A DNA stretch of 17,312 bases, from IMG/VR virus record IMGVR_UViG_2850790056_000002; one strand, written 5' to 3'. The notes under the pieces were generated by a model. It ran no database searches. It saw only the letters and a program-made list of their open reading frames with translations, and was not told the origin of the DNA. How positions within the stretch are numbered: the first letter of the stretch is position 1; each line of letters opens with the position of its first letter. The position numbers were made by a program, and so were the translations under genes. Below are positions 1 through 17,312 of the stretch, piece by piece. The DNA is from a virus. Lineage: Duplodnaviria > Heunggongvirae > Uroviricota > Caudoviricetes.

Positions 1-273
1 ATGGCCAGCGTTAACATTCATTGTCCTCGTTGTCAGTCTGCACAGGTCTACCGCCATGGTCAGAACCCTAAAGGCCATGACAGATTTCGCTGCCGTGACT
101 GCCACCGCGTTTTTCAGCTCACTTACACTTATGAGGCCCGTAAGCCGGGCATTAAAGAGCTGATCACTGAAATGGCCTTCAATGGCGCCGGGGTTCGCGA
201 TACCGCCAGGACACTGAAAATTGGCATTAACACCGTCATCCGGACTTTAAAAAACTCACGCCAAAGCGAATAA
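1..273 (+). CDS. insA: IS1-family InsA (zinc-finger/HTH transposition regulator), divergent from classical IS1 InsA
   Basis: 90-aa ORF with CPRC...CRDC zinc-finger motif and InsA-like C-terminus; roughly 45% identical by eye to the classical InsA at 4926-5201. Confidence 0.9.
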   Translation: MASVNIHCPRCQSAQVYRHGQNPKGHDRFRCRDCHRVFQLTYTYEARKPGIKELITEMAFNGAGVRDTARTLKIGINTVIRTLKNSRQSE

Positions 274-299
274 CGTCTTCGCCCGTTGCTCATGCCGAT

Positions 300-695
300 G
301 TGGCGCTTATCTGCGAACTTGATGAGCAATGGAGTTTCGTTGGCAGTAAAGCCCGGCAACACTGGCTCTGGTACGCGTATAACACCAAAACAGGGGGGGT
401 ACTGGCCTACACTTTTGGTCCCCGTACCGATGAAACCTGCCGGGAACTACTGGCACTGCTTACGCCATTCAACATCGGCATGATCACCAGCGACGACTGG
501 GGCAGCTATGGCCGGGAAGTGCCGAAGGATAAGCATCTGACCGGAAAAATATTCACCCGACGGATTGAGCGCAATAACCTGACGCTGCGCACCCGCATTA
601 AGCGCTTGGCTCGTAAAACAATCTGCTTCTCGCGTTCAGTAGAGATCCACGAAAAAGTCATCGGGACGTTTATTGAAAAACACATGTTCTACTAA
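300..695 (+). CDS. insB: IS1-family InsB reading frame (expressed as InsAB' transposase by -1 frameshift; the frame opens upstream of the first ATG)
   Basis: ORF in -1 frame relative to insA; A6C motif near insA 3' end; same architecture as the IS1 at 4871-5638. Confidence 0.85.
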   Translation: MALICELDEQWSFVGSKARQHWLWYAYNTKTGGVLAYTFGPRTDETCRELLALLTPFNIGMITSDDWGSYGREVPKDKHLTGKIFTRRIERNNLTLRTRIKRLARKTICFSRSVEIHEKVIGTFIEKHMFY

Positions 696-777
696 TTGGA
701 AGCATCACCGATATTTATATGTCCGGCCAAATTGAGGTGTGTTTAAATGTAATTGCACATTGATTGTAGGAGGAATA

Positions 778-957
778 ATGAAAAACGCATTGCAGTTTTT
801 GTTTGTTGCGTTCTGGTTGTTCGTATCATGTATGCCCATCATCTTCACAGCAAGGTATATGGAAAAAGTTGATGTTTTGATATTAATATTTGGATATATA
901 AATGCCCTTTTTTTAGGGGTGTCCATGGCGGTCATGTGCATTGAATACTGGCGGTAA
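778..957 (+). CDS. small hydrophobic protein (59 aa, predicted two transmembrane segments), function unknown
   Basis: ATG at 778 preceded by near-perfect Shine-Dalgarno taggagga (767-774) with ~5-nt spacer; the ORF-track frame begins at 739 but 778 is the RBS-supported start. Confidence 0.4.
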   Translation: MKNALQFLFVAFWLFVSCMPIIFTARYMEKVDVLILIFGYINALFLGVSMAVMCIEYWR

Positions 958-959
958 AT

Positions 960-1215
960 ACAGCGAACTCCATTGGTTTAGTTGGATATTTACTGTGCTG
1001 GACAAAAACGGTTTGCGGGGAAATCTTAGTTAAGTAGAATGACTGCGGGTGCTTGAGGCTATCTGCCTCGGGCATGGACACCAACGGCAGATAGAGAAAA
1101 GCCCCAGTTAACACTACGCGTCCTGCAAGACGCTTAACATTAATCTGAGGCCAATTTCATGCTAGACACATGTAGGTTAGCCTCTTACGTGCCGAAAGGC
1201 AAGGAGAAGCAGGCT
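960..1215 (+). promoter_or_regulatory. hok mRNA leader region; an antisense Sok-like RNA would be expected on the minus strand here but was not mapped
   Basis: Position immediately upstream of the hok-family ORF; in-frame upstream extension (mok-like frame from 1159); no promoter mapped precisely. Confidence 0.3.
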
Positions 1216-1371
1216 ATGAAGCAGCAAAAGGCGATGTTAATCGCCCTGATCGTCATCTGTTTAACCGTCATAGTGACGGCACTGGTAACGAGGAAAGACC
1301 TCTGCGAGGTACGAATCCGAACCGGCCAGACGGAGGTCGCTGTCTTCACAGCTTACGAACCTGAGGAGTAA
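1216..1371 (+). CDS. hokD: Hok/Gef-family type I toxin, HokD (RelF)-like
   Basis: 51-aa product MKQQKAMLIALIVICLTVIVTALVTRKDLCEVRIRTGQTEVAVFTAYEPEE matches my recollection of HokD; ATG at 1216 inside ORF-track frame 1159-1371. Confidence 0.85.
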   Translation: MKQQKAMLIALIVICLTVIVTALVTRKDLCEVRIRTGQTEVAVFTAYEPEE

Positions 1372-1441
1372 GAGACCCGGCGAGGGAGAAATCCCTCGCC
1401 ACCTCTGATGTGGCAGGCATCCTCAACGCACCCGCACTTAA

Positions 1442-1470
1442 CCCGCTTCGGCGGGTTTTTGTTTTTATTT
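1442..1470 (+). terminator. rho-independent terminator (hok transcript 3' end)
   Basis: cccgc-ttcg-gcggg hairpin (1442-1455) followed by a T-run; a second GNRA-loop hairpin cgaggga-gaaa-tccctcg at 1381-1398. Confidence 0.6.
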
Positions 1471-1587
1471 TCAACGCATTTGAAGTTCTGGACGGTGCCG
1501 GAATAGAATCAAAAATACTTAAGTAGCGCGCAGGGATAAGAGGGATGGTCCCTTAAAGGGGAGAGCTAATTATCCGGAAGGATTCTG

Positions 1588-1839
1588 ATGATGAACATCG
1601 AAGAACTGCGTAAAATTTTTTGTGAAGATGGCCTCTATGCTGTGTGCGTTGAAAATGGAAATATTGTTAGTCATTACCGCATTGTGTGTTTGCAAAAAAA
1701 TGGGGCTGCGTTAATTAATTTTGTGGATGCCCGAGTGACGGACGGATTTATCTTGCGCGACGGTGAGTTTGTCACTTCATTACAGGCATTGAAAGAGATC
1801 GGAATAAAAGCTGGCTTTTCTGCTTTTTCAGAAGAATAA
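1588..1839 (+). CDS. small prophage protein, Rem-like (83 aa), function unknown
   Basis: ORF with GGAAGG RBS upstream; size and position between hokD and a YdfU-like gene match the Qin prophage rem gene as I recall it. Confidence 0.5.
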   Translation: MMNIEELRKIFCEDGLYAVCVENGNIVSHYRIVCLQKNGAALINFVDARVTDGFILRDGEFVTSLQALKEIGIKAGFSAFSEE

Positions 1840-1905
1840 ACTCATCTACAATCTTGCGCGGGGCTGAACTCCCGCTGAGTAACACCGTGCCACCGGAGAA
1901 AACCG

Positions 1906-2184
1906 ATGGCACGCAACGCAAAATATTACAATCATGATAATTCGACCGTTCTTGCCCACACGCACGAGCGGTATTCTCACGCATTTAAGTCAGACTGGTA
2001 CCAGCATCCCCCATGCACTGAAGAACAGGCCGAATGGCTCATTCAGTGTTACCGCAGGCGCGGATGCGAGGTTAAAAAAGCCCTTAGCCTCGACTACCGT
2101 CACTGGATAATCTCCGTCAGGCTTCCTTACTCCGAACGCCCACCGCGTCCGTCCCGCACATTCCAGCAACGCATCTGGAGGTAA
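1906..2184 (+). CDS. hypothetical 92-aa protein
   Basis: ATG with GGAGA RBS 6 nt upstream; stop 1 nt before the GTG start of the next gene, suggesting translational coupling. Confidence 0.45.
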   Translation: MARNAKYYNHDNSTVLAHTHERYSHAFKSDWYQHPPCTEEQAEWLIQCYRRRGCEVKKALSLDYRHWIISVRLPYSERPPRPSRTFQQRIWR

Positions 2185-2185
2185 C

Positions 2186-3235
2186 GTGCGGGTATTACTT
2201 CGACCTGTTCTGGTACCGGAACTCGGGCTGGTGATCGTTAAGCCGGGCCGTGAATCCATGCCGGTATTCCACAATACCCGGTTACTGGTGGAGCCGGAAC
2301 CGAAAAGCATGCGTAATCTGCCGTCCGGGGTCGTTCCTGCCGCTCGCCAGCCGCTGGTGGAAGACAAAACATTGCTGCCGTTTTTCAGTAACGCACGGGT
2401 GATTCGTGCTGCTGGTGGTGCTGGTGCATTGTCTGACTGGCTGTTGCGCCATATTAAATCCTGCCAGTGGCCACACGGCGATTATCATCACAGCGAAACC
2501 GTCATTCACCGTTATGGTACCGGCGCAATGGTGTTGTGCTGGCACTGCGACAACCAGCTGCGTGACCAGACATCCGAATCACTCGAGCAACTTGCTCATC
2601 AAAACCTGTCAGCATGGATGATTGACGTCATCGGTCACGCAATAAGCGGTACGCAGGAGCGTGAATTATCTCTGGCTGAATTATCCTGGTGGGCGGTCCG
2701 CAATCAGGAGGCGGACGCGCTACCGGAAGCGGTATTACGTCGTTCGCTGGGGTTGCGTGCGGAAAAAATCCGCTCAATGTACTGTGAAAGCGACATCGTA
2801 CCGGGAGAGCAGACCGCCACCAGCATACTGAAACAGCGCACAAAAAATCTTGCGCCGCTGCCTCACGCCCACCAGCAACAGAACCCACCACAGGAAAAGA
2901 CGGTGGTCAGCATTGCCGTTGATCCTGAGTCTCCGGAATCTTTCATGAAACGACCTAAACGTCGTCGCTGGGTTAACGAGAAATACACACGCTGGGTGAA
3001 GACACAGCCGTGTGCGTGTTGTGGTAAGCCAGCCGACGATCCCCATCACCTGATTGGTCATGGTCAGGGCGGAATGGGGACAAAATCTCACGATATTTTC
3101 GCGCTACCGCTGTGTCGGGAGCATCACAACGAGCTTCATGCGGATCCGCTGGCGTTCGAAGAAAAGCATGGTTCTCAGGTTGATTTAATTTTTCGTTTTC
3201 TTGATCACGCCTTTGCAACTGGCGTGCTTGGGTAA
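2186..3235 (+). CDS. ydfU: DUF968 / YdfU-like prophage protein with C-terminal HNH-like (Ref-like) nuclease motif
   Basis: 349-aa ORF from GTG; C-terminal CACCGK...DPHHL...LCREHHNELH resembles a His-Me finger HNH motif; position in the nin-like region upstream of rusA and Q. Confidence 0.65.
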   Translation: MRVLLRPVLVPELGLVIVKPGRESMPVFHNTRLLVEPEPKSMRNLPSGVVPAARQPLVEDKTLLPFFSNARVIRAAGGAGALSDWLLRHIKSCQWPHGDYHHSETVIHRYGTGAMVLCWHCDNQLRDQTSESLEQLAHQNLSAWMIDVIGHAISGTQERELSLAELSWWAVRNQEADALPEAVLRRSLGLRAEKIRSMYCESDIVPGEQTATSILKQRTKNLAPLPHAHQQQNPPQEKTVVSIAVDPESPESFMKRPKRRRWVNEKYTRWVKTQPCACCGKPADDPHHLIGHGQGGMGTKSHDIFALPLCREHHNELHADPLAFEEKHGSQVDLIFRFLDHAFATGVLG

Positions 3236-3247
3236 AAGAGGTGACTG

Positions 3248-3622
3248 ATGCTCATAGATTTGGTTTTACCTTACCCGCCGACGGTGAACACTTACTGGCG
3301 ACGCCGTGGCAGCACATATTTTATCTCGGAGGAGGGAAAGCGTTATCGCCGGGCTGTGGCGCTTATTGTTCGCCAGCAGCGGCTGAAATTAAGCCTGTCC
3401 GGAAGGCTGGCGATAAAGGTGATTGCAGAGCCACCGGATAAGCGTCGTCGCGACCTGGACAATATCCTGAAAGCACCGCTGGATGCGCTGACGCATGCGG
3501 GAGTGTTAATGGACGATGAGCAGTTTGATGAAATCAATATCGTTCGTGGTCAGCCAGTATCTGGTGGACGTCTGGGGGTGAAGATTTACCCCATAATGCA
3601 TGAAGAGCAGGTCAAAAAATGA
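3248..3622 (+). CDS. rusA: RusA-family Holliday junction resolvase
   Basis: 124-aa ORF with PDKRRRDLDN...DAL...DD...GGRL motifs characteristic of RusA; RBS aagagg upstream. Confidence 0.85.
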   Translation: MLIDLVLPYPPTVNTYWRRRGSTYFISEEGKRYRRAVALIVRQQRLKLSLSGRLAIKVIAEPPDKRRRDLDNILKAPLDALTHAGVLMDDEQFDEINIVRGQPVSGGRLGVKIYPIMHEEQVKK

Positions 3623-4440
3623 AACTGGAAGATTTACCGAAATACTACTCCCCAAAATCCCCTTGCCTGACCGATGCATCGGCCTCAACGTCAAAAGATG
3701 CGCTGAGTATCACTGATGTGATGGCCGCGCAGGGCATGACACAGAATCGGGCTGAGATGGGGTTTTCTGCGTTCCTGGGGAAAATGGGCATCAGTATGAA
3801 TGACAGGGCGCGGGAAACAGAATTACTGGCAGATTATGCACTCAGTCGGTGCGATCGTGTGGCGGCGTTGAGAAAACTTCCGGCAGAAATAAAACCGTTA
3901 GTGATGCGCATTATGGCTTCGTACGCTTTTGAGGATTATGCCCGCAGCGCAGCGAGTAAAAAGCAGTGCCCTTGTTGCTATGGGGAAAAATTTATTGAAA
4001 GCGTAGTTTTTGCAAACAAGGTCCAGTATCCGGATGGTAAGCCGCCGGTATGGGCAAAGTGTACGAAAGGTGTGTATCCGTCTTACTGGGAAGAATGGAA
4101 AAAAGTCAGGGAGGTGGTAAAAGTTGCCTGTCCGGAGTGTGGCGGAAAGGGTGAGGTTTCCACCGCCTGTAAGGATTGCCGTGGGCGTGGTGTCGCCATT
4201 CACCGTGAAGAGTCGGTAAAACGTGGTATGTCTGTTATCAGAGACTGCCAGCGTTGTGGTGGTCGTGGCTATGAAAGACTACCATCAACGGAGGCATTTA
4301 ATGCTATATGCGAGGTGACAAACCAGATAACACGCGCGTCATGGGAAAAAACAGTTAAGAAATTCTATGATGCGCTGGTGACCCGGTTTGATATTGAAGA
4401 AGCATGGGCTGAGCGGCAGTTAAAAAAGGTAACTAGGTAA
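3619..4440 (+). CDS. late-gene antiterminator Q-like protein (zinc-finger type, QuuQ/Q82-like)
   Basis: 273-aa ORF starting in an ATGA overlap with the rusA stop; three CxxCxGxG zinc-finger repeats; located immediately upstream of a promoter-like element and tRNA genes as in lambdoid/Stx phages. Confidence 0.6.
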   Translation: MKLEDLPKYYSPKSPCLTDASASTSKDALSITDVMAAQGMTQNRAEMGFSAFLGKMGISMNDRARETELLADYALSRCDRVAALRKLPAEIKPLVMRIMASYAFEDYARSAASKKQCPCCYGEKFIESVVFANKVQYPDGKPPVWAKCTKGVYPSYWEEWKKVREVVKVACPECGGKGEVSTACKDCRGRGVAIHREESVKRGMSVIRDCQRCGGRGYERLPSTEAFNAICEVTNQITRASWEKTVKKFYDALVTRFDIEEAWAERQLKKVTR

Positions 4441-4445
4441 CAAGG

Positions 4446-4473
4446 TTGATTTTTCCGGAATCTGTGGTAGATT
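4446..4473 (+). promoter_or_regulatory. candidate late promoter (pR-prime analogue) downstream of Q
   Basis: -35 ttgatt (4446-4451), 16-nt spacer, extended -10 tggtagatt (4465-4473); assignment by position only. Confidence 0.3.
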
Positions 4474-4583
4474 CGTCATAACGATGGGCTTTTTATGCCT
4501 GACGTTAGAAGAGTTTCTACAACCCGCCGCCGAGCAGGTTTTTTATTGCGGAATTAATTACGGACCGTTATTATTCTGCTCCC

Positions 4584-4659
4584 GGCCCTTTAGCTCAGTG
4601 GTGAGAGCGAGCGACTCATAATCGCCAGGTCGCTGGTTCAAATCCAGCAAGGGCCACCA
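4584..4659 (+). tRNA. tRNA with CAU anticodon (Met or lysidine-type Ile2, ileZ-like as in Stx phages)
   Basis: 76-nt cloverleaf folded by hand: acceptor ggccctt/aagggcc, D-arm gctc/gagc, anticodon loop ctCATaa, T-arm gctgg-ttcaaat-ccagc, discriminator A plus encoded CCA. Confidence 0.85.
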
Positions 4660-4757
4660 TCACAAACCGCCATTAGCTTATCAGGAAGAGCAGACGACAC
4701 GATAACAGGGTTGTTGGTGCGGGGCGGGCCCCGATGGCGGTCCATTATCGGTATTCA

Positions 4758-4834
4758 GCGTTGTTAGCTCAGCCGGACAGAGCAATTGCCTTCTAAGCAA
4801 TCGGTCACTGGTTCGAATCCAGTACAGCGCGCCA
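4758..4834 (+). tRNA. tRNA-Arg (UCU anticodon, argN/argO-like)
   Basis: 77-nt cloverleaf: acceptor gcgttgt/acagcgc, D-arm gctc/gagc, perfect anticodon stem attgc/gcaat with loop ctTCTaa, T-arm actgg-ttcgaat-ccagt, encoded CCA. Confidence 0.85.
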
Positions 4835-4925
4835 TATTCATTCTGCCAGATTCCTTCCGGCAGAGCCTTAGGTGATGCTGCCAACTTACTGATTTAGTGT
4901 ATGATGGTGTTTTTGAGGTGCTCCA

Positions 4926-5201
4926 GTGGCTTCTGTTTCTATCAGCTGTCCCTCCTGTTCAGCTACTGACGGGGTGGTGCGTAACGGCAAAAGCACTGCC
5001 GGACATCAGCGCTATCTCTGCTCTCACTGCCGTAAAACATGGCAACTGCAGTTCACTTACACCGCTTCTCAACCCGGTACGCACCAGAAAATCATTGATA
5101 TGGCCATGAATGGCGTTGGATGCCGGGCAACTGCACGCATTATGGGCGTTAGCCTCAACACGATTTTACGTCACTTAAAAAACTCAGGCCGCAGTCGGTA
5201 A
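4926..5201 (+). CDS. insA: IS1 InsA
   Basis: 91-aa ORF matching classical IS1 InsA ([22 protein letters not shown]...). Confidence 0.95.
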
Positions 5202-5245
5202 CCTCGCGCATACAGCCGGGCAGTGACGTCATCGTCTGCGCGGAA

Positions 5246-5623
5246 ATGGACGAACAGTGGGGATACGTCGGGGCTAAATCGCGCCAGCGCTGGCTGTTTT
5301 ACGCGTATGACAGGCTCCGGAAGACGGTTGTTGCGCACGTATTCGGTGAACGCACTATGGCGACGCTGGGGCGTCTTATGAGCCTGCTGTCACCCTTTGA
5401 CGTGGTGATATGGATGACGGATGGCTGGCCGCTGTATGAATCCCGCCTGAAGGGAAAGCTGCACGTAATCAGCAAGCGATATACGCAGCGAATTGAGCGG
5501 CATAACCTGAATCTGGGGCAGCACCTGGCACGGCTGGGACGGAAGTCGCTGTCGTTCTCAAAATCGGTGGAGCTGCATGACAAAGTCATCGGGCATTATC
5601 TGAACATAAAACACTATCAATAA
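5246..5623 (+). CDS. insB: IS1 InsB frame (InsAB' transposase by -1 frameshift)
   Basis: ORF in -1 frame relative to insA ending 15 bp inside the right end; matches classical IS1 InsB. Confidence 0.9.
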
Positions 5624-5747
5624 GTTAGAGTCATTACCGAGCCTTATACTGAAATATACCTGGCTCAGGATATTGTTGAAAATATTATATGTTTGTCAAA
5701 AATAAAAGTTCTGTTAAGTATTGATTGAGTGTTTGTTATACGGTCTA

Positions 5748-6074
5748 ATGGTTTTTTCAGCATTAAATATTTATCATTCATATGGTGTGGGTAGAGTGAA
5801 TATTGATGAGGCGTCGGGGTGTTTCATCCTTAGGCAGCGTATTGATATAGTCAATGCAGCACGAGCAAAGGCCTTCAGCCGTTTGACAGTTTTGTTCTGT
5901 ACTCCTGATCGTCTTTCGGGAAGAGACGTTATTATTCTGAATAGTGATGCTATACAGAGGGTTTGCGATGAGTTCATGGTTGCTAATTCAGAATTATTTG
6001 CTCTTGTTCAGGAGTACAACAGAATAGCCAGGACCTGTGGTATGGATGAACTTCGGGGTGATGCCTCTAATTAG
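5748..6074 (+). CDS. hypothetical protein in AT-rich cargo segment; last 5 codons and stop supplied by the inserted IS1 (native C-terminus ...ELRITHLG replaced by ...ELRGDASN)
   Basis: Open frame from TTG 5721 / ATG 5748; IS1 copy B inserted at 6056/6057 with 8-bp TSD; joining the flanks restores an ORF ending at the tag now at 6846-6848; start codon uncertain. Confidence 0.4.
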   Translation: MVFSALNIYHSYGVGRVNIDEASGCFILRQRIDIVNAARAKAFSRLTVLFCTPDRLSGRDVIILNSDAIQRVCDEFMVANSELFALVQEYNRIARTCGMDELRGDASN

Positions 6075-6113
6075 TTGAATCTGATGTATAATGCGGGCTT
6101 TTGAGGTTCTTTC

Positions 6114-6386
6114 ATGGCCAGCGTTAACATTCATTGTCCTCGTTGTCAGTCTGCACAGGTCTACCGCCATGGTCAGAACCCTAAAGGCCATGACAGATTT
6201 CGCTGCCGTGACTGCCACCGCGTTTTTCAGCTCACTTACACTTATGAGGCCCGTAAGCCGGGCATTAAAGAGCTGATCACTGAAATGGCCTTCAATGGCG
6301 CCGGGGTTCGCGATACCGCCAGGACACTGAAAATTGGCATTAACACCGTCATCCGGACTTTAAAAAACTCACGCCAAAGCGAATAA
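6114..6386 (+). CDS. insA: IS1-family InsA (divergent type)
   Basis: Identical protein to ORF 1-273. Confidence 0.9.
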   Translation: MASVNIHCPRCQSAQVYRHGQNPKGHDRFRCRDCHRVFQLTYTYEARKPGIKELITEMAFNGAGVRDTARTLKIGINTVIRTLKNSRQSE

Positions 6387-6412
6387 CGTCTTCGCCCGTT
6401 GCTCATGCTGAT

Positions 6413-6808
6413 GTGGCGCTTATCTGCGAACTTGATGAGCAATGGAGTTTCGTTGGCAGTAAAGCCCGGCAACACTGGCTCTGGTACGCGTATAACACCA
6501 AAACAGGGGGGGTACTGGCCTACACTTTTGGTCCCCGTACCGATGAAACCTGCCGGGAACTACTGGCATTGCTTACGCCATTCAACATCGGCATGATCAC
6601 CAGCGACGACTGGGGCAGCTATGGCCGGGAGGTGCCGAAGGATAAGCATCTGACCGGAAAAATATTCACCCAACGGATTGAGCGCAATAACCTGACGCTG
6701 CGCACCCGCATTAAGCGCTTGGCTCGTAAAACAATCTGCTTCTCGCGTTCAGTAGAGATCCACGAAAAAGTCATCGGGACGTTTATTGAAAAACACATGT
6801 TCTACTAA
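6413..6808 (+). CDS. insB: IS1-family InsB frame (divergent type)
   Basis: Same as ORF 300-695 with one substitution (R to Q). Confidence 0.85.
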   Translation: MALICELDEQWSFVGSKARQHWLWYAYNTKTGGVLAYTFGPRTDETCRELLALLTPFNIGMITSDDWGSYGREVPKDKHLTGKIFTQRIERNNLTLRTRIKRLARKTICFSRSVEIHEKVIGTFIEKHMFY

Positions 6809-7184
6809 TTGGAAGCATCACCAACTTCGGATTACTCATCTGGGGTAGATACATATCTGGATTATCACCTGTTACGGTATAAAGTGATTGCTTACTGTTT
6901 TTGTGAATGGCATTGCAGCAGCCGGATAATGTCAGTGTTGGCTGACGGTGTGCTGGTGGCGGGTGTGGTGGTTGTTGCTTTCCCGTTGCTGAAAAAGAAA
7001 ACGCCAGACTGTTAGCCGGGTATCAGTTAGCGGGAGAAATTTTTAAATACTTCACAATTCAGGCGGTTGACTGTTGTCTGGTTTGCGGGGAGTTTGTTAA
7101 AAGAAACTGGCATGGTGAATTGAGGTAGCCTGAGTTTAACGGACACTCCTTCCTGAAATAGAATGGCATCAGAAGGAGCTAATA

Positions 7185-7487
7185 ATGAGCAGAAAAACCC
7201 AACGTTACTCTAAAGAGTTCAAAGCCGAAGCTGTCAGAACGGTTCTTGAAAATCAACTTTCGATCAGTGAAGGCGCTTCCCGATTATCCCTTCCTGAAGG
7301 CACTTTAGGACAATGGGTTACCGCCGCCAGAAAAGGGCTCGGTACTCCTGGTTCCCGCACGGTGGCTGAACTGGAATCTGAAATTCTGCAACTGCGTAAG
7401 GCGTTAAATGAAGCTCGCCTTGAGCGAGATATATTAAAAAAAGCAACAGCGTATTTTGCACAGGAGTCGCTGAAAAATACGCGTTAA
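7185..7487 (+). CDS. IS600 OrfA (HTH transposase N-terminal protein)
   Basis: 100-aa [21 protein letters not shown]... typical of IS3-family OrfA with leucine-zipper C-terminus. Confidence 0.9.
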   Translation: MSRKTQRYSKEFKAEAVRTVLENQLSISEGASRLSLPEGTLGQWVTAARKGLGTPGSRTVAELESEILQLRKALNEARLERDILKKATAYFAQESLKNTR

Positions 7488-7522
7488 TCGAACAATGGCG
7501 ACAACAATTTCCCATTGAAGCG

Positions 7523-8341
7523 ATGTGTCAGGTATTTGGTGTATCCAGGAGCGGTTATTACAACTGGGTACAGCATGAACCCTCAGACAGAAAACAAAGT
7601 GATGAGCGGCTAAAACTGGAGATTAAGGTGGCACATATCCGCACTCGCGAAACATATGGAACCCGGCGGCTCCAGACGGAGCTGGCAGAGAATGGCATCA
7701 TCGTTGGTCGTGACCGACTGGCACGTCTTCGTAAGGAGCTAAGGCTACGCTGTAAGCAGAAACGCAAGTTCAGAGCGACTACGAACTCGAACCACAATCT
7801 GCCAGTTGCGCCAAATCTGCTGAACCAGACGTTCGCTCCTACAGCACCAAATCAGGTCTGGGTGGCGGACCTGACGTATGTTGCCACACAGGAGGGATGG
7901 TTGTACCTCGCTGGCATCAAAGATGTTTATACGTGCGAAATTGTCGGCTACGCCATGGGAGAGCGCATGACAAAAGAGCTGACAGGTAAAGCCCTGTTTA
8001 TGGCGCTCAGGAGCCAGCGCCCACCTGCCGGGCTAATCCACCACTCTGATCGAGGTTCACAGTACTGCGCATACGATTACCGGGTCATACAGGAGCAGTT
8101 TGGTCTGAAAACATCAATGTCGCGTAAAGGTAACTGTTACGACAACGCTCCGATGGAAAGCTTCTGGGGAACGCTGAAAAATGAGAGCCTGAGCCACTAT
8201 CGTTTTAATAACCGGGATGAAGCCATCTCAGTAATACGGGAATACATTGAGATTTTCTACAATCGTCAGCGTCGTCACTCTCGTCTGGGGAATATCTCCC
8301 CGGCAGCCTTCAGGGAAAAATATCATCAGATGGCTGCTTAG
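7523..8341 (+). CDS. IS600 OrfB (DDE transposase catalytic domain; normally made as OrfAB fusion by -1 frameshift)
   Basis: 272-aa ORF in -1 frame relative to orfA with DDE-type motifs (WVADLTY..., HSDRGSQY..., NAPMESFWGTLK); stop tag at 8339-8341. Confidence 0.9.
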   Translation: MCQVFGVSRSGYYNWVQHEPSDRKQSDERLKLEIKVAHIRTRETYGTRRLQTELAENGIIVGRDRLARLRKELRLRCKQKRKFRATTNSNHNLPVAPNLLNQTFAPTAPNQVWVADLTYVATQEGWLYLAGIKDVYTCEIVGYAMGERMTKELTGKALFMALRSQRPPAGLIHHSDRGSQYCAYDYRVIQEQFGLKTSMSRKGNCYDNAPMESFWGTLKNESLSHYRFNNRDEAISVIREYIEIFYNRQRRHSRLGNISPAAFREKYHQMAA

Positions 8342-8507
8342 AAAAAGAACAAATGGTAGTGTCCGCTATTGCCAGTACACCTCAAATCCCCCTGTGCGGA
8401 GGGGCAATCAGCGAGTAGGTATATGGGATAATCGCGGATTCAGGTGCTGGTACTGAATTCACCGGGAGGCACCCGGCACCATGCAATGGCACATAGCGCC
8501 ACTCTCC

Positions 8508-8560: not shown

Positions 8561-8592
8561 CCTTATGGACTTTGTTGTTTTAGTCCATAAGG
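8561..8592. repeat. perfect 11-bp inverted repeat with 10-nt T-rich spacer
   Basis: ccttatggact (8561-8571) and agtccataagg (8582-8592) are exact reverse complements. Confidence 0.7.
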
Positions 8593-8734
8593 ACATATTT
8601 GCAGAGTGCAACGGTTATTAAAGCATTCATTCAATACGTTATCTGTATTTGTAGGGCATTCCTGGCTGTTTTTGATTAAATTCCAGAATGTTTTATTGAA
8701 TGGTACTACGTTGTAAATGGGGTGATGCTTCCAA

Positions 8735-9145
8735 TTAGTAGAACATGTGTTTTTCAATAAACGTCCCGATGACTTTTTCGTGGATCTCTACTGAACGCGA
8801 GAAGCAGATTGTTTTACGAGCCAAGCGCTTAATGCGGGTGCGCAGCGTCAGGTTATTGCGCTCAATCCGTTGGGTGAATATTTTTCCGGTCAGATGCTTA
8901 TCCTTCGGCACCTCCCGGCCATAGCTGCCCCAGTCGTCGCTGGTGATCATGCCGATGTTGAATGGCGTAAGCAGTGCCAGTAGTTCCCGGCAGGTTTCAT
9001 CGGTACGGGGACCAAAAGTGTAGGCCAGTCCCCCCCCCTGTTTTGGTGTTATACGCGTACCAGAGCCAGTGTTGCCGGGCTTTACTGCCAACGAAACTCC
9101 ATTGCTCATCAAGTTCGCAGATAAGCGCCACATCAGCATGAGCAA
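8735..9145 (-). pseudogene. insB: IS1-family insB with +1 frameshift in a homopolymer tract (9 C on the plus strand at 9030-9038, versus G7 then T in copies A and B)
   Basis: ORF-track protein fuses an out-of-frame N-terminus (MLMLMW...TPKQGG) to the InsB frame (GLAYTFGPRTDETC...); ORF is 411 nt versus 410 nt for the equivalent span in copy B. Confidence 0.7.
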
Positions 9146-9157
9146 CGGGCGAAGACG

Positions 9158-9430
9158 TTATTCGCTTTGGCGTGAGTTTTTTAAAGTCCGGATGACGGTG
9201 TTAATGCCAATTTTCAGTGTCCTGGCGGTATCGCGAACCCCGGCGCCATTGAAGGCCATTTCAGTGATCAGCTCTTTAATGCCCGGCTTACGGGCCTCAT
9301 AAGTGTAAGTGAGCTGAAAAACGCGGTGGCAGTCACGGCAGCGAAATCTGTCATGGCCTTTAGGGTTCTGACCATGGCGGTAGACCTGTGCAGACTGACA
9401 ACGAGGACAATGAATGTTAACGCTGGCCAT
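9158..9430 (-). CDS. insA: IS1-family InsA (divergent type)
   Basis: Protein identical to ORFs 1-273 and 6114-6386. Confidence 0.9.
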   Translation of the reverse strand: MASVNIHCPRCQSAQVYRHGQNPKGHDRFRCRDCHRVFQLTYTYEARKPGIKELITEMAFNGAGVRDTARTLKIGINTVIRTLKNSRQSE

Positions 9431-9515
9431 GAAAGAACCTCAAAAGCCCGCATTATACATCAGATTCAACTAATTAGAGGCATCACCAGTTATTTTTCAG
9501 ATGGTGGAAAGAACC

Positions 9516-9743
9516 ATGGCATTTAAACACTATGATGTTGTCAGGGCGGCGCCGCCGTCAGATCTTGCGGAAAAGCTGACACATAAACTGAAAGAGGGCT
9601 GGCAGCTGTTTGGTAGTCCGGTGGCCATAACCCCTTATACCCTGATGCAGGCGATTGCAGCAGAAGGTGATGTGGTGGTCAGTGGTGCAATTGAGCCGGA
9701 GTGGTACTACGTCATCGTATTGGCCCGGCATTCCAGGCCATAA
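9516..9743 (+). CDS. small late-region prophage protein of unknown function (possibly DUF1737-like)
   Basis: ATG at 9516 with GGAAAG RBS (ORF-track frame opens at 9501); lies upstream of the holin gene in the late region; family name is a tentative recollection. Confidence 0.35.
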   Translation: MAFKHYDVVRAAPPSDLAEKLTHKLKEGWQLFGSPVAITPYTLMQAIAAEGDVVVSGAIEPEWYYVIVLARHSRP

Positions 9744-10100
9744 AAGACAGTCTGGCAGTGGGACTAAATGCACTGACGCTGACGGATATTACCAAAAATG
9801 CAACGTATGGCGTTGAGATAGAAAGTCTGGTGCTGGAGATAAATGCACCGGCATCATCATAAAAAGTGAGCCAGTCAAACGGAAGGTATCGTTAAACTCA
9901 CCGGTAGTGTCAGTGGGTCGTCTGAGACGCTTGCATTAGTTATCAGAGCCATCAGTAGTTAACTGGTGGCTTTGTTATTGTTGTCAGCTTCCGGATAACG
10001 GGAGACGGGTAGACTGGCCCCCTGAATCTCCAGACAACCAGTATCACTTAAATAAGTGATAGTCTTAATACTAGTTTTTAGACTAGTCATTGGAGAACAG

Positions 10101-10466
10101 ATGATTGATGTCTTAGGGCCGGAGAAACGCAGACGGCGTACCACACAGGAAAAGATCGCAATTGTTCAGCAGAGCTTTGAACCGGGGATGACGGTCTCCC
10201 TCGTTGCCCGGCAACATGGTGTAGCAGCCAGCCAGTTATTTCTCTGGCGTAAGCAATACCAGGAAGGAAGTCTTACTGCTGTGGCCGCCGGAGAACAGGT
10301 TGTTCCTGCCTCTGAACTTGCTGCCGCCATGAAGCAGATTAAAGAACTCCAGCGCCTGCTCGGCAAGAAAACGATGGAAAATGAACTCCTCAAAGAAGCC
10401 GTTGAATATGGACGGGCAAAAAAGTGGATAGCGCACGCGCCCTTATTGCCCGGGGATGGGGAGTAA
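10101..10466 (+). CDS. insC: IS2 InsC (OrfA)
   Basis: 121-aa product [24 protein letters not shown]... ; the ORF-track frame opens upstream at 10056. Confidence 0.9.
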
Positions 10467-11329
10467 GCTTAGTCAGCCGTTGTCTCCGGGTGTCGCGTGC
10501 GCAGTTGCACGTCATTCTCAGACGAACCGATGACTGGATGGATGGCCGCCGCAGTCGTCACACTGATGATACGGATGTGCTTCTCCGTATACACCATGTT
10601 ATCGGAGAGCTGCCCACGTATGGTTATCGTCGGGTATGGGCGCTGCTTCGCAGACAGGCAGAACTTGATGGTATGCCTGCGATCAATGCCAAACGTATTT
10701 ACCGGATCATGCGCCAGAATGCGCTGTTGCTTGAGCGAAAACCTGCTGTACCGCCATCGAAACGGGCACATACAGGCAGAGTGGCCGTGAAAGAAAGCAA
10801 TCAGCGATGGTGCTCTGACGGGTTCGAGTTCTGCTGTGATAACGGAGAGAGACTGCGTGTCACGTTCGCGCTGGACTGCTGTGATCGTGAGGCACTGCAC
10901 TGGGCGGTGACTACCGGCGACTTCAACAGTGAAACAGTACAGGACGTCATGCTGGGAGCGGTGGAACGCCGCTTCGGCAACGATCTTCCGTCGTCTCCAG
11001 TGGAGTGGCTGACGGATAATGGTTCATGCTACCGGGCTAATGAAACACGCCAGTTCGCCCGGATGTTGGGACTTGAACCGAAGAACACGGCGGTGCGGAG
11101 TCCGGAGAGTAACGGAATAGCAGAGAGCTTCGTGAAAACGATAAAGCGTGATTACATCAGTATCATGCCCAAACCAGACGGGTTAACGGCAGCAAAGAAC
11201 CTTGCAGAGGCGTTCGAGCATTATAACGAATGGCATCCGCATAGTGCGCTGGGTTATCGCTCGTCACGGGAATATCTGCGGCAGCGGGCTTGTAATGGGT
11301 TAAGTGATAACAGATGTCTGGAAATATAG
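10424..11329 (+). CDS. insD: IS2 InsD (OrfB, DDE transposase)
   Basis: 301-aa ORF overlapping insC in a different frame; DDE-type motifs. Confidence 0.9.
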
Positions 11330-11347
11330 GGGCAAATCCAACGGGGT

Positions 11348-11563
11348 ATGGACCAGATGGAAAAAATCACAACAGGTGTGTCATACACCACGTCAGCGGT
11401 GGGAACGGGCTACTGGTTCCTGCAGTTGCTGGACAGGGTTTCCCCGTCTCAGTGGGCGGCAATAGGCGTGCTGGGGAGTCTGCTGTTTGGGCTGCTGACA
11501 TATCTGACTAACCTGTATTTCAAAATCAGAGAGGACCGTCGTAAGGCGGCACGGGGAGAGTAA
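11348..11563 (+). CDS. class II holin / pinholin (phage 21 S-like, EssD-like) with dual-start motif
   Basis: 71-aa product ...[50 protein letters not shown] closely matches S21/EssD as recalled; two in-frame Met codons (M1, M4). Confidence 0.8.
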
Positions 11564-11567
11564 TTCA

Positions 11568-11753
11568 ATGACTCAAAACTATGAACTGGTTGTGAAAGGG
11601 ATCCGCAATTTTGAGAATAAGGTTACGGTAACTTTAGCATTACAGGACAAAGAACGCTTTGACGGTGAAATTTTTGACCTGGACATCTCGCTGGACCGTG
11701 TTGAAGGTGCCGCGCTGGAGTTTTATGAGGCAGCGGCCAGAAGGAGCATCTGA
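11568..11753 (+). pseudogene. YdfR-like (DUF1327-like) lysis-cassette gene, 3'-truncated by IS600
   Basis: ORF begins 5 nt after the holin stop; its stop codon tga (11751-11753) is the first three bases of the IS600 terminal repeat; family assignment from recollection of Qin gene order essQ-ydfR-rrrQ. Confidence 0.45.
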
Positions 11754-12187
11754 GGTGTACTGGCAATAGCGAACACTACCATTTGTTCTTTTTTTAAGCA
11801 GCCATCTGATGATATTTTTCCCTGAAGGCTGCCGGGGAGATATTCCCCAGACGAGAGTGACGACGCTGACGATTGTAGAAAATCTCAATGTATTCCCGTA
11901 TTACTGAGATGGCTTCATCCCGGTTATTAAAACGATAGTGGCTCAGGCTCTCATTTTTCAGCGTTCCCCAGAAGCTTTCCATCGGAGCGTTGTCGTAACA
12001 GTTACCTTTACGCGACATTGATGTTTTCAGACCAAACTGCTCCTGTATGACCCGGTAATCGTATGCGCAGTACTGTGAACCTCGATCAGAGTGGTGGATT
12101 AGTCCGGCAGGTGGGCGCTGGCTCCTGAGCGCCATAAACAGGGCTTTACCTGTCAGCTCTTTTGTCATGCGCTCTCCCATGGCGTAG
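11751..12187 (-). mobile_element. IS600 fragment (copy 2): 3'-terminal ~437 bp including the right inverted repeat, inverted orientation
   Basis: Plus strand reads tgaggtgtactggcaatagcgaacactacc... (IS600 right end, reverse complement); homology ends at 12187 where the IS911 terminus begins. Confidence 0.85.
11794..12187 (-). pseudogene. IS600 orfB, C-terminal fragment
   Basis: 128-aa ORF identical to the C-terminal part of OrfB from copy 1; terminates with taa rather than tag. Confidence 0.85.
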
Positions 12188-14338
<2,151 letters not shown>

Positions 14339-14532
14339 AGTCTGATGTCTTTATCACCGTCAGCTTTTCCCTGATACGCAGCAATAATCAGCCCGCCAAT
14401 GTCAGGGTCTCCCCATCTGTTGCGGACAGAGCTCGCCGCGATTCTGTAAATAATATCTTCTGCGGTTATATTTATTTTCACCCAGTCAGTCAGAAATCCA
14501 GATAAGAGCCGGTAGCAGGCGTGATAAATGGG
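14339..14532 (-). other. 194-bp orphan coding fragment between two IS600 copies, open on the minus strand (remnant of a deleted gene)
   Basis: One minus-strand frame has no stop across the whole segment (...TDWVKINITAEDIIYRIAASSVRNRWGDPDIGGLIIAAYQGKADGDKDIR...); family not recognised. Confidence 0.35.
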
Positions 14533-14596
14533 TGAGGTAGCCTGAGTTTAACGGACACTCCTTCCTGAAATAGAATGGCATCAGAAGGAGCTAATA

Positions 14597-14899
14597 ATGA
14601 GCAGAAAAACCCAACGTTACTCTAAAGAGTTCAAAGCCGAAGCTGTCAGAACGGTTCTTGAAAATCAACTTTCGATCAGTGAAGGCGCTTCCCGATTATC
14701 CCTTCCTGAAGGCCCTTTAGGACAATGGGTTACCGCCGCCAGAAAAGGGCTCGGTACTCCTGGTTCCCGCACGGTGGCTGAACTGGAATCTGAAATTCTG
14801 CAACTGCGTAAGGCGTTAAATGAAGCTCGCCTTGAGCGAGATATATTAAAAAAAGCAACAGCGTATTTTGCACAGGAGTCGCTGAAAAATACGCGTTAA
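14597..14899 (+). CDS. IS600 OrfA
   Basis: 100-aa ORF, one substitution (T to P) relative to copy 1. Confidence 0.85.
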   Translation: MSRKTQRYSKEFKAEAVRTVLENQLSISEGASRLSLPEGPLGQWVTAARKGLGTPGSRTVAELESEILQLRKALNEARLERDILKKATAYFAQESLKNTR

Positions 14900-14934
14900 T
14901 CGAACAATGGCGACAACAATTTCCCATTGAAGCG

Positions 14935-15254
14935 ATGTGTCAGGTATTTGGTGTATCCAGGAGCGGTTATTACAACTGGGTACAGCATGAACCCTCAGAC
15001 AGAAAACAAAGTGATGAGCGACTAAAACTGGAGATTAAGGTGGCACATATCCGCACTCGCGAAACATATGGAACCCGGCGGCTCCAGACGGAGCTGGCAG
15101 AGAATGGCATCATCGTTGGTCGTGACCGACTGGCACGTCTTCGTAAGGAGCTAAGGCTACGCTGTAAGCAGAAACGCAAGTTCAGAGCGACTACGAACTC
15201 GAACCACAATCTGCCAGTTGCGCCAAATCTGCTGAACCAGACGTTCGCTCCTAC
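14935..15254 (+). pseudogene. IS600 orfB, truncated after ~106 codons by the adjacent IS600 copy
   Basis: ORF-track 14935-15267 ends ...NQTFAPTEVA; the last codons derive from the terminal repeat of copy 5. Confidence 0.85.
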
Positions 15255-16520
15255 TGAGGTAGCCTGAGTTTAACGGACACTCCTTCCTGAAATAGAATGG
15301 CATCAGAAGGAGCTAATAATGAGCAGAAAAACCCAACGTTACTCTAAAGAGTTCAAAGCCGAAGCTGTCAGAACGGTTCTTGAAAATCAACTTTCGATCA
15401 GTGAAGGCGCTTCCCGATTATCCCTTCCTGAAGGCACTTTAGGACAATGGGTTACCGCCGCCAGAAAAGGGCTCGGTACTCCTGGTTCCCGCACGGTGGC
15501 TGAACTGGAATCTGAAATTCTGCAACTGCGTAAGGCGTTAAATGAAGCTCGCCTTGAGCGAGATATATTAAAAAAAGCAACAGCGTATTTTGCACAGGAG
15601 TCGCTGAAAAATACGCGTTAATCGAACAATGGCGACAACAATTTCCCATTGAAGCGATGTGTCAGGTATTTGGTGTATCCAGGAGCGGTTATTACAACTG
15701 GGTACAGCATAAACCCTCAGACAGAAAACAAAGTGATGAGCGACTAAAACTGGAGATTAAGGTGGCACATATCCGCACTCGCGAAACATATGGAACCCGG
15801 CGGCTCCAGACGGAGCTGGCAGAGAATGGCATCATCGTTGGTCGTGACCGACTGGCACGTCTTCGTAAGGAGCTAAGGCTACGCTGTAAGCAGAAACGCA
15901 AGTTCAGAGCGACTACGAACTCGAACCACAATCTGCCAGTTGCGCCAAATCTGCTGAACCAGACGTTCGCTCCTACAGCACCAAATCAGGTCTGGGTGGC
16001 GGACCTGACGTATGTTGCCACACAGGAGGGATGGTTGTACCTCGCTGGCATCAAAGATGTTTATACGTGCGAAATTGTCGGCTACGCCATGGGAGAGCGC
16101 ATGACAAAAGAGCTGACAGGTAAAGCCCTGTTTATGGCGCTCAGGAGCCAGCGCCCACCTGCCGGGCTAATCCACCACTCTGATCGAGGTTCACAGTACT
16201 GCGCATACGATTACCGGGTCATACAGGAGCAGTTTGGTCTGAAAACATCAATGTCGCGTAAAGGTAACTGTTACGACAACGCTCCGATGGAAAGCTTCTG
16301 GGGAACGCTGAAAAATGAGAGCCTGAGCCACTATCGTTTTAATAACCGGGATGAAGCCATCTCAGTAATACGGGAATACATTGAGATTTTCTACAATCGT
16401 CAGCGTCGTCACTCTCGTCTGGGGAATATCTCCCCGGCAGCCTTCAGGGAAAAATATCATCAGATGGCTGTGCTTAAAAAAAGAACAAATGGTAGTGTCC
16501 GCTATTGCCAGTACACCTCA
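15255..16520 (+). mobile_element. IS600 copy 5, full length (1266 bp; same 2-bp-insertion variant as copy 3), no flanking direct repeat
   Basis: Both terminal repeats present; flanks tac versus act do not match; gctgtgctt at 16467-16475. Confidence 0.9.
15319..15621 (+). CDS. IS600 OrfA
   Basis: 100-aa ORF identical to copy 1 OrfA. Confidence 0.9.
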   Translation: MSRKTQRYSKEFKAEAVRTVLENQLSISEGASRLSLPEGTLGQWVTAARKGLGTPGSRTVAELESEILQLRKALNEARLERDILKKATAYFAQESLKNTR

Positions 16521-16760
16521 ACTTGTCAGGGGGCGGTCATACAGAGGCTCACGACTGGGACCGGTGGGGATTTCAGCGCCCTGTACTCCCACCGGAACGC
16601 ATATAGTATACCCACAATATTTCATTACGGGATGTTCAGAGCATTCATTACCGGGGTCATATCGCGCCCTGTCCGGGGTGCCGGATACATATGTCTCTGG
16701 CGCAATGCTTGGGCTTTTTATTCGCACATCGTGAGGAATGGAATGCACCGTGGAAATTAA
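15657..16760 (+). CDS. IS600 OrfB with 95-codon read-through extension into flanking DNA
   Basis: Same 2-bp insertion as copy 3; 367-aa ORF runs to 16760, well past the IS end at 16520. Confidence 0.8.
   Translation: MCQVFGVSRSGYYNWVQHKPSDRKQSDERLKLEIKVAHIRTRETYGTRRLQTELAENGIIVGRDRLARLRKELRLRCKQKRKFRATTNSNHNLPVAPNLLNQTFAPTAPNQVWVADLTYVATQEGWLYLAGIKDVYTCEIVGYAMGERMTKELTGKALFMALRSQRPPAGLIHHSDRGSQYCAYDYRVIQEQFGLKTSMSRKGNCYDNAPMESFWGTLKNESLSHYRFNNRDEAISVIREYIEIFYNRQRRHSRLGNISPAAFREKYHQMAVLKKRTNGSVRYCQYTSTCQGAVIQRLTTGTGGDFSALYSHRNAYSIPTIFHYGMFRAFITGVISRPVRGAGYICLWRNAWAFYSHIVRNGMHRGN
16522..16734 (+). pseudogene. 3' remnant (about 70 codons) of a gene interrupted by IS600 copy 5; possibly a phage gene, unassigned
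   Basis: Open frame from the IS600 junction to tga at 16732-16734, 3 nt before the next gene's RBS-supported start; no 5' part in the window. Confidence 0.3.
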
Positions 16761-17312
16761 AAAAATCATTAATCCCCGTTATACCGAAAGTGGCGCAGTA
16801 GACTGTGACGTTTTTTTGACGACAGGGACCAGGCAGTCCCCTACACAGCCACTGCTGATGATGTCGCTTCGACGGGTCAGCAAATCTGGCAGGAACTGCA
16901 AAGCGGCAAATGGGGTGAGATAGCCCCATTCACTGTGACACCAGAAATGCTGGAAGCGGCCAGAGAGGCCAGACGTCAGGGAATTGAAGCATGGCGCACA
17001 GAACAGGAGGCGAAGCCGTTCACGTTTGAATGGAACGGTCGTATCTGGAATGCTGGCCCCAACTCACTGGGCCGCCTTTATCCGGTGGTAATGGCTGCGA
17101 AATCCGACATTGTACGGGACGTGATGACGTGGGGTGATGCCGATAATCAGCAGGTGAAACTGTCGATGCCGGAACTGGAAGAACTGGCGGCAGCAATGGC
17201 TCAGGCACAGGTTGAGCGCAATGACGAGATTTATCGCCGTCAGCGGGAGCTGAAGGAAGAGCTGAATAGTCTGAAGGATTTGAATTCGGTTAGGAATTTT
17301 ATCGTGGAATAA
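16738..17312 (+). pseudogene. hypothetical protein (~191 aa if intact), frameshifted at a T7 homopolymer (16811-16817)
   Basis: ATG 16738 with RBS tgagga; ORF-track splits it into 16738-16923 and 16935-17312; the second frame opens at 16809 right after the T-run; one extra T would fuse both into ...DCDVFFDDRDQAVPYTATADD... Confidence 0.4.

Follow-up and report, generated by a model that had tools for sequence, protein, structure and literature searches.

An IS2 insertion between an intact phage 21-type holin gene and its Shine-Dalgarno-like element in a decaying Shigella dysenteriae type 1 prophage

A complete IS2 element next to an orphaned holin gene

The 17,312-nucleotide (nt) stretch of viral DNA recorded in IMG/VR as IMGVR_UViG_2850790056_000002 (Caudoviricetes; its full length is hereafter called the window) is part of a defective lambdoid prophage of Shigella dysenteriae type 1 with a decaying lysis module, in which a complete copy of the insertion sequence (IS) IS2 lies directly upstream of an intact holin gene of the phage 21 S-family. 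This holin is most probably a near-silent and essentially inert relic within a prophage shredded by IS elements. In the scenario that we favor, IS2 jumped into an ACGGG pentamer located between the start codon of the gene and its GGGAG ribosome-binding site (RBS), which deprived the first methionine (Met1) of its Shine-Dalgarno (SD) sequence, and a pile of IS600 and IS911 elements separately took out the region from the middle of ydfR to the tail-fibre genes, including the genes for a signal-anchor-release (SAR)-type endolysin and for Rz/Rz1. Between the holin gene and the region of the antiterminator gene Q and the promoter pR' now lie 1.3 kb of poorly translated IS2 sequence and four further IS elements, and no new promoter appears to have formed at the junction. 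The open reading frame (ORF) itself would be intact because the lineage is young and clonal and its 216 bp have not yet been mutated. The locus, from the Shigella lineage with the heaviest IS load, represents a clean and fully resolved case of a lambdoid prophage being dismantled by IS2, IS1, IS600, and IS911. Each of its components is a known element that matches previously described copies exactly or almost exactly, and IS-driven prophage decay is textbook for this lineage. The locus is not a new system, its significance is small, and it has no bearing on a long-standing open question.

IS2 was identified by a length of about 1331 bp, inverted repeats at the termini that are imperfect and about 41/42 bp long, an orfA/orfB pair with an A6G frameshift window, and a 5-bp target-site duplication, all of which were found here. 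The element spans positions 10010-11340 on the plus strand (1331 bp), with its left inverted repeat (IRL) on the left and its right inverted repeat (IRR) on the right, and shows 99.7% full-length identity to annotated Escherichia coli IS2 copies. Its orfA (10101-10466, 121 amino acids) and orfB (10424-11329, 301 amino acids), both on the plus strand, are full-length matches to the NCBIfam models of IS2 TnpA (276 bits) and TnpB (721 bits), respectively. The A6G window for the -1 frameshift lies at about 10419-10425, where the run caaaaaag falls inside the overlap of the two frames, and the imperfect terminal inverted repeat pairs 10019-10051 with 11300-11332. Copies of ACGGG flank the element at 10005-10009 and 11341-11345. 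When IS2 and one ACGGG were removed, the reconstructed empty site (916 nt) aligned in one piece at about 98% to 836 complete E. coli genomes and was also collinear with several phage isolates, and a single ACGGG was present in each of 12 IS-free alleles, which read gggagACGGGgtATG (junction context ...ccggataacgggagACGGGgtATGGACCAG...). Thus, as a sequence-only reading of this DNA had proposed, the pentamer is a true target-site duplication; it is not a chance repeat. The IRR end (…GGGGCAAATCCA) at 11340 faces the holin, so that the IS2 terminus is 7 nt and the end of the duplicated pentamer 2 nt upstream of the holin ATG at 11348, in agreement with the earlier placement of the insertion 2 bp ahead of the start codon. 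The orfB stop codon (TAG, 11327-11329) is in the holin frame, with six sense codons between it and the first ATG, and amber read-through or suppression at this stop would fuse the transposase to the holin; the chance of such a frame match is one in three.

The holin gene (11348-11563, plus strand) encodes an intact protein of 71 amino acids that matches PF04971 ("Bacteriophage P21 holin S") with 112.5 bits (cutoff 26) over 63 of the 64 profile positions. Homology to PF04971 and the gene order of relatives assign it to the phage 21-type class II holins, or pinholins. No NCBIfam model matched either the holin or YdfR, and a PDB sequence search with the holin returned chance matches only (E of at least 0.35), with no solved structure of relatives. 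The ORF begins with MDQM, having its second methionine codon (Met4) at 11357, and this two-methionine start is kept across the subfamily (MDQM, MYQM, and MNQM). The first transmembrane domain (TMD1, residues 7-28) is weakly hydrophobic (mean Kyte-Doolittle value 0.71, with 50% Gly, Ala, Ser, or Thr), the second (TMD2, residues 36-58) is strongly hydrophobic (mean 1.48) and contains G40, S44, and G48, and the C-terminal tail is basic and highly charged. A GxxxSxxxG motif in TMD2 is relevant to pinhole formation. S-type pinholins of phage 21 make small heptameric channels that depolarize the membrane and do not release a cytoplasmic endolysin, and the protein studied here may form pinholes in the same way, judging from its sequence.

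The prototype pinholin S21 of phage 21 (S21-68/S21-71, partner SAR endolysin R21) shares with this holin the PF04971 domain, the length of 71 amino acids, and Met1 plus Met4, together with a weakly hydrophobic TMD1 rich in Gly, Ala, Ser, and Thr, a hydrophobic TMD2 (G40, S44, and G48), and a basic tail. An S21-type allele beginning with MKSM (the sequence of phage Lambda_ev058 was used for comparison) is about 76% identical to our holin and directly precedes a 165-residue lysozyme with a SAR-like N-terminus. However, the two systems differ in several respects: ydfR stands between holin and lysozyme in the present subfamily, the endolysin and spanin genes are gone from the window, and the N-terminal extension is M-D-Q rather than the M-K-S of S21-type alleles. 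An additional positive charge is the defining trait of the S21-71 antiholin (PMC9636201), and the M-D-Q extension contains an acidic residue and no Lys or Arg. The division of roles between antiholin and holin should not be taken for granted in this allele, and the "dual start" is structural only as far as the sequence can tell; of the dual-start pinholin suggested earlier, the family and the two methionines stand and the antiholin half lacks its basic residue.

Closer relatives are found among lambdoid and Shiga toxin (Stx) phages. The holin is 100% identical at the amino acid level to those of phage vB_EcoS-716R1 and the E. coli 042 prophage and 98.6% identical to many Stx2a phage holins, and copies at 98.6-100% identity, including that of VT2phi_272, have the same upstream sequence (gggagacggggtATG). 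Unlike the window, these loci have an uninterrupted SD-ATG region and a full holin-YdfR-lysozyme-Rz/Rz1 cassette. The same 71-residue protein is very common (an index of the assembly collection lists it in approximately 25,000 blocks), and all 216 of 216 nt of the gene are identical to IS-free alleles located in complete lysis cassettes, which bears out the earlier description of an intact ORF with two start methionines.

Downstream of the holin, only 61 of 116 codons of ydfR (DUF1327) are left (11568-11753, plus strand; domain match, tblastn, and IS600 end sequence), and its TGA stop codon consists of the three terminal bases of the right end of an inverted IS600 at 11751, so the truncation point inferred previously was correct. 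In every sampled IS-free context, the holin is followed by YdfR, a 177-residue lysozyme (121 residues in one locus), and Rz/Rz1; the 177-residue lysozyme has a SAR-like N-terminus (YGLSAAVLALIAVGAPAP). The region 12188-16521 of the window is instead an IS pile that stands in place of the endolysin, Rz/Rz1, terminase, head, and tail genes. Because neither the lysozyme nor the Rz of the E. coli 042 prophage had a tblastn match in the window, the holin is locally orphaned, and the reported absence of endolysin and Rz/Rz1 genes after it was upheld.

We also examined the distribution of this arrangement. The IS600-truncated YdfR protein was detected on 12 contigs, of which eight were inspected, and all eight belong to S. 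dysenteriae type 1 genomes (including strains 08-3380, BU53M1, 69-3818, 07-3308, NCTC 9718, and HNCMB 20080). Each of the eight carries the IS2-holin-ydfR' junction and an intact holin ORF, and no inactivating change of the holin was seen in these related strains. Over 2313 bp spanning the junction, the strains are 99.9-100% identical (0-2 single-nucleotide polymorphisms, SNPs), with the exception of one assembly (L003) that shows 97.8% identity and many gaps. The window matches CP026782 and CP024466 exactly over the junction stretch and shares its downstream IS arrangement with CP026782 (L008). None of 5426 complete E. coli genomes contains the IS2-holin junction. An exact-match scan of GTDB species-representative genomes did not find it either, which is uninformative about the spread of the junction because an E. 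coli genome probably stands in for Shigella in that collection. The supplements of a Shigella IS survey have no entry for "holin". Among Shigella reference chromosomes, IS density peaks in S. dysenteriae, where IS1, IS2, IS4, IS600, and IS911 account for 99% of the IS burden (PMC7373316); the lineage and the IS repertoire observed here (IS1, IS2, IS600, and IS911) are the same as in the known IS-driven decay of prophages and genome in S. dysenteriae type 1 (PMC7373316, PMC7819885). The IS-flanked defective Stx prophage of this serotype was considered as the identity of the locus and rejected: it lies between sapC and ycjW, whereas related S. dysenteriae type 1 loci have the prophage remnant adjoining ABC-3 transporter genes, and the window has neither stx nor any ORF of its size.

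Translation and transcription signals at the junction

The native SD-like element for Met1 is GGGAG at 10000-10004 (plus strand; anti-SD duplex -7.4 kcal/mol), which is conserved in the IS-free alleles. Its distance to the first ATG is 7 nt in the reconstructed native allele and 1343 nt now, since 1336 bp have been added, and the strongest SD-like element is thus found beyond IS2, as expected from an insertion between RBS and ATG. A weaker SD-like element, GGGGU (11343-11347, plus strand; -6.3 kcal/mol in the native and IS2 alleles alike), overlaps the right duplication, with its last G 1 nt before the first ATG and 10 nt before the Met4 codon. Because GGGGU survives the insertion, translation has not necessarily been abolished. 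The IS2 end also contributes UAGGGGC (-5.6 kcal/mol), which at 14 nt before the first ATG is probably too far away for use. It therefore appears that initiation at Met1 has most likely been lost and that initiation at Met4 could persist at reduced efficiency. A predicted hairpin between IRR and the first holin codons was no more stable than the native fold and was not relied on.

With regard to transcription, the right end of IS2 carries an outward -35 element (PMC3219604), and in the IS2 minicircle this IRR -35 works together with the -10 of IRL, for which a spacer of exactly 17 bp, one junction base included, is mandatory (PMC3299598, PMC3219604). When this published 17-bp rule is applied backwards from TAGACT of IRL, the -35 falls putatively at TGGAAA (11319-11324). 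The hexamers that follow it are ACGGGG at 16 bp, CGGGGT at 17 bp, and GGGGTA at 18 bp, none of which resembles TATAAT, and a promoter scan found no promoter-like site at the IS2-holin junction. For an IS2 fusion promoter to work, a -10 must be present at the correct spacing (PMC9330008). As no -10-like hexamer is present at the required spacing, a hybrid promoter is not supported.

Transcripts could also enter from upstream. RNA polymerase modified by Q resists both intrinsic and Rho-dependent terminators, and phage antitermination classically suppresses IS polarity. IS2 is the fifth IS between the presumed pR' and the holin, and the five elements together amount to about 5.9 kb. Considering the terminator resistance of Q-modified polymerase and that IS2 is only one of these five elements, it is an assumption that the insertion deprived the holin of Q-dependent late transcription, and this part of the sequence-only reading was not confirmed. 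IS2 itself has the promoter PIRL, a weak one that OrfA represses (PMC3299598). A terminator scan found no intrinsic terminator on the plus strand within IS2, and together with PIRL this makes low-level read-through into the holin possible.

Alternative explanations for the intact holin

Low expression and absence of selection are what we infer from the arrangement described above, and the main challenge to this view is conditional expression. According to this possibility, which we consider unlikely, the holin would be produced by read-through of IS2, either Q-antiterminated from pR' or arising weakly from PIRL, with translation starting mainly at Met4 by means of GGGGU, and the outcome would be a membrane-depolarizing pinholin without an endolysin partner. 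Q is intact, Q-modified polymerase is resistant to terminators, IS2 has no predicted plus-strand intrinsic terminator, GGGGU (-6.3 kcal/mol) was left untouched 10 nt ahead of Met4, and the protein is identical to alleles in a functional context. However, about 5.9 kb of IS DNA in five elements separate pR' from the holin, PIRL is weak and OrfA-repressed (PMC3299598), a spacing of 10 nt to an SD of four Gs is suboptimal, and the early region of the prophage lies outside the window, which leaves expression of Q an assumption. A more specific version, in which IS2 has turned the gene into a Met4-only holin transcriptionally fused to the transposase operon, so that IS2 bursts or Q read-through would co-express the pinholin, is quite improbable. 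If the holin were expressed, it would be a modest curiosity, namely an endolysin-less pinholin coupled to an IS. New constitutive control by a hybrid outward promoter (the IRR -35 plus a flanking -10) is even harder to accept and can be regarded as extremely unlikely. The end with the outward -35 is indeed the one that abuts the holin (PMC3219604), and IS2 fusion promoters have been documented for ampC, acrEF, and neoR (PMC9330008). The IS2-ampC fusion promoter (Jaurin and Normark 1983, summarised in PMC9330008) likewise has the right end of IS2 with its outward -35 next to a gene in the same orientation, but unlike that case the flanking DNA here offers no -10-like hexamer at 16-18 bp. Nothing promoter-like was seen in the scan, and the transcript would start within the first codons of the ORF. 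The suggestion that IS2 places the gene under new control was thus not borne out.

It is also conceivable, albeit very unlikely, that selection has retained the orphan holin because it serves the host, for example in the release of periplasmic proteins or membrane vesicles or in stress-induced death. Lysis genes of cryptic prophages in E. coli K-12 have been assigned host roles, and the ORF is intact in all inspected genomes with the junction. On the other hand, the SD has been displaced and the partner genes deleted, and the observed diversity (at most 2 SNPs per 2313 bp) predicts only about 0.1 neutral changes in a 216-bp ORF. Since no nucleotide difference from the IS-free alleles was found where about 0.1 is expected, intactness of the ORF is uninformative on selection, and an intact ORF in a young clone is no evidence of function. 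The interpretation of the holin as a near-silent relic has its own weak points: low expression is deduced from the layout of the locus, the position of the IS2 -35 hexamer derives from the published 17-bp rule, GGGGU is kept 10 nt before Met4, Q is intact, and orfB, which is in frame with the holin, terminates 18 nt upstream of its ATG, so that read-through transcription with some translation is possible.

Other features of the window

The upstream part of the window is collinear with the IS-free E. coli 042 prophage in the order DUF968, RusA, and Q, and the IS-free order continues with tRNAs, iraM, DUF1737, holin, YdfR, lysozyme, and Rz. The late antiterminator gene Q (3619-4440, plus strand) is intact and encodes 273 amino acids (PF03589 Antiterm, 181 bits; 97.4% full-length identity to Q of the 042 prophage). 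A candidate pR' (TTGATT-N16-TAGATT, 4447-4474, plus strand) was recognized by eye and is below the threshold of the promoter scan. ARAGORN detected tRNA-Met(CAT) and tRNA-Arg(TCT) at 4584-4834 on the plus strand; the equivalent of the CAT-anticodon tRNA in E. coli 042 is annotated as tRNA-Ile. Thus, Q and the tRNAs of a Q-dependent late-operon layout are present, but continuity to the lysis cassette is broken by the five IS elements and a 410-bp deletion. A 70-residue ORF at 1159-1371 has a sub-threshold match to the Hok toxin family (47.5 bits, cutoff 73) and corresponds to the hokD region of the 042 prophage.

The upstream IS elements were called from breaks in collinearity with E. coli 042, self-BLAST, end sequences, and IS1/IS3 family matches. 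They comprise an IS1 at 4871-5638 (8-bp duplication), an IS1-type element at 6057-6822 (8-bp duplication), an IS600 at 7121-8384 (3-bp duplication), and a minus-strand IS1-type element at 8721-9487, which has no duplication and is adjacent to the 410-bp deletion. Compared with E. coli 042, this deletion has taken away codons 1-60 of iraM, an anti-adaptor gene, and leaves residues 61-111 (8566-8720). Two different IS1-family elements are involved: the one at 4871-5638 has canonical IS1 ends (GGTGATGCTGCCAAC) and shows no blastn similarity (E<1e-5) to the copies at 1-709, 6057-6822, and 8721-9487, which are 99% identical to one another and end in GGTGATGCCTCTAA / GGTGATGCTTCCAA. A DUF1737 remnant (PF08410) and a 53-residue ORF at 9501-9862 (plus strand; tblastn against 042 proteins) precede the holin in IS-free relatives as well. 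The terminator scan also identified a terminator-like hairpin of 13 pairs at 9944-9974 on the plus strand, with about 35 nt between it and the downstream SD of the holin. In the 9944-9984 region, the first U-tract reads CTTTGTTATT in this lineage vs CTTTTTTATT in all 12 IS-free alleles, corresponding to a T-to-G change at 9974 that might weaken termination.

On the other side of the holin, the IS600 that truncates ydfR is a 437-bp right-end fragment on the minus strand (11751-12187; self-BLAST to full IS600 copies and end sequence) that is cut by IS911. It is followed by an IS911 fragment (12188-13072, minus strand), an IS600 (13073-14336, plus strand), a partial IS600 (14533-15254, plus strand), and another IS600 (15255-16521, plus strand). 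The 196-bp spacer between two of the IS600 copies (14337-14532) has no similarity to the rest of the window. The composition of this pile varies among the S. dysenteriae type 1 loci (L003-L010): in most, a full IS911 and after it an IS600 lie on the minus strand, whereas in the window and CP026782 the IS911 is truncated and the IS600 copies after it are on the plus strand, among them the tandem partial-plus-full pair at 14533-15254 and 15255-16521. These differences among strains look like the result of IS600-mediated rearrangement. Directly past the last IS600, prophage DNA resumes with tail-fibre/DUF4376 sequence from 16522 to the end of the window at 17312, which is about 93% identical to its best E. 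coli matches and is covered to at least 80% in 11 of the 5426 genomes.

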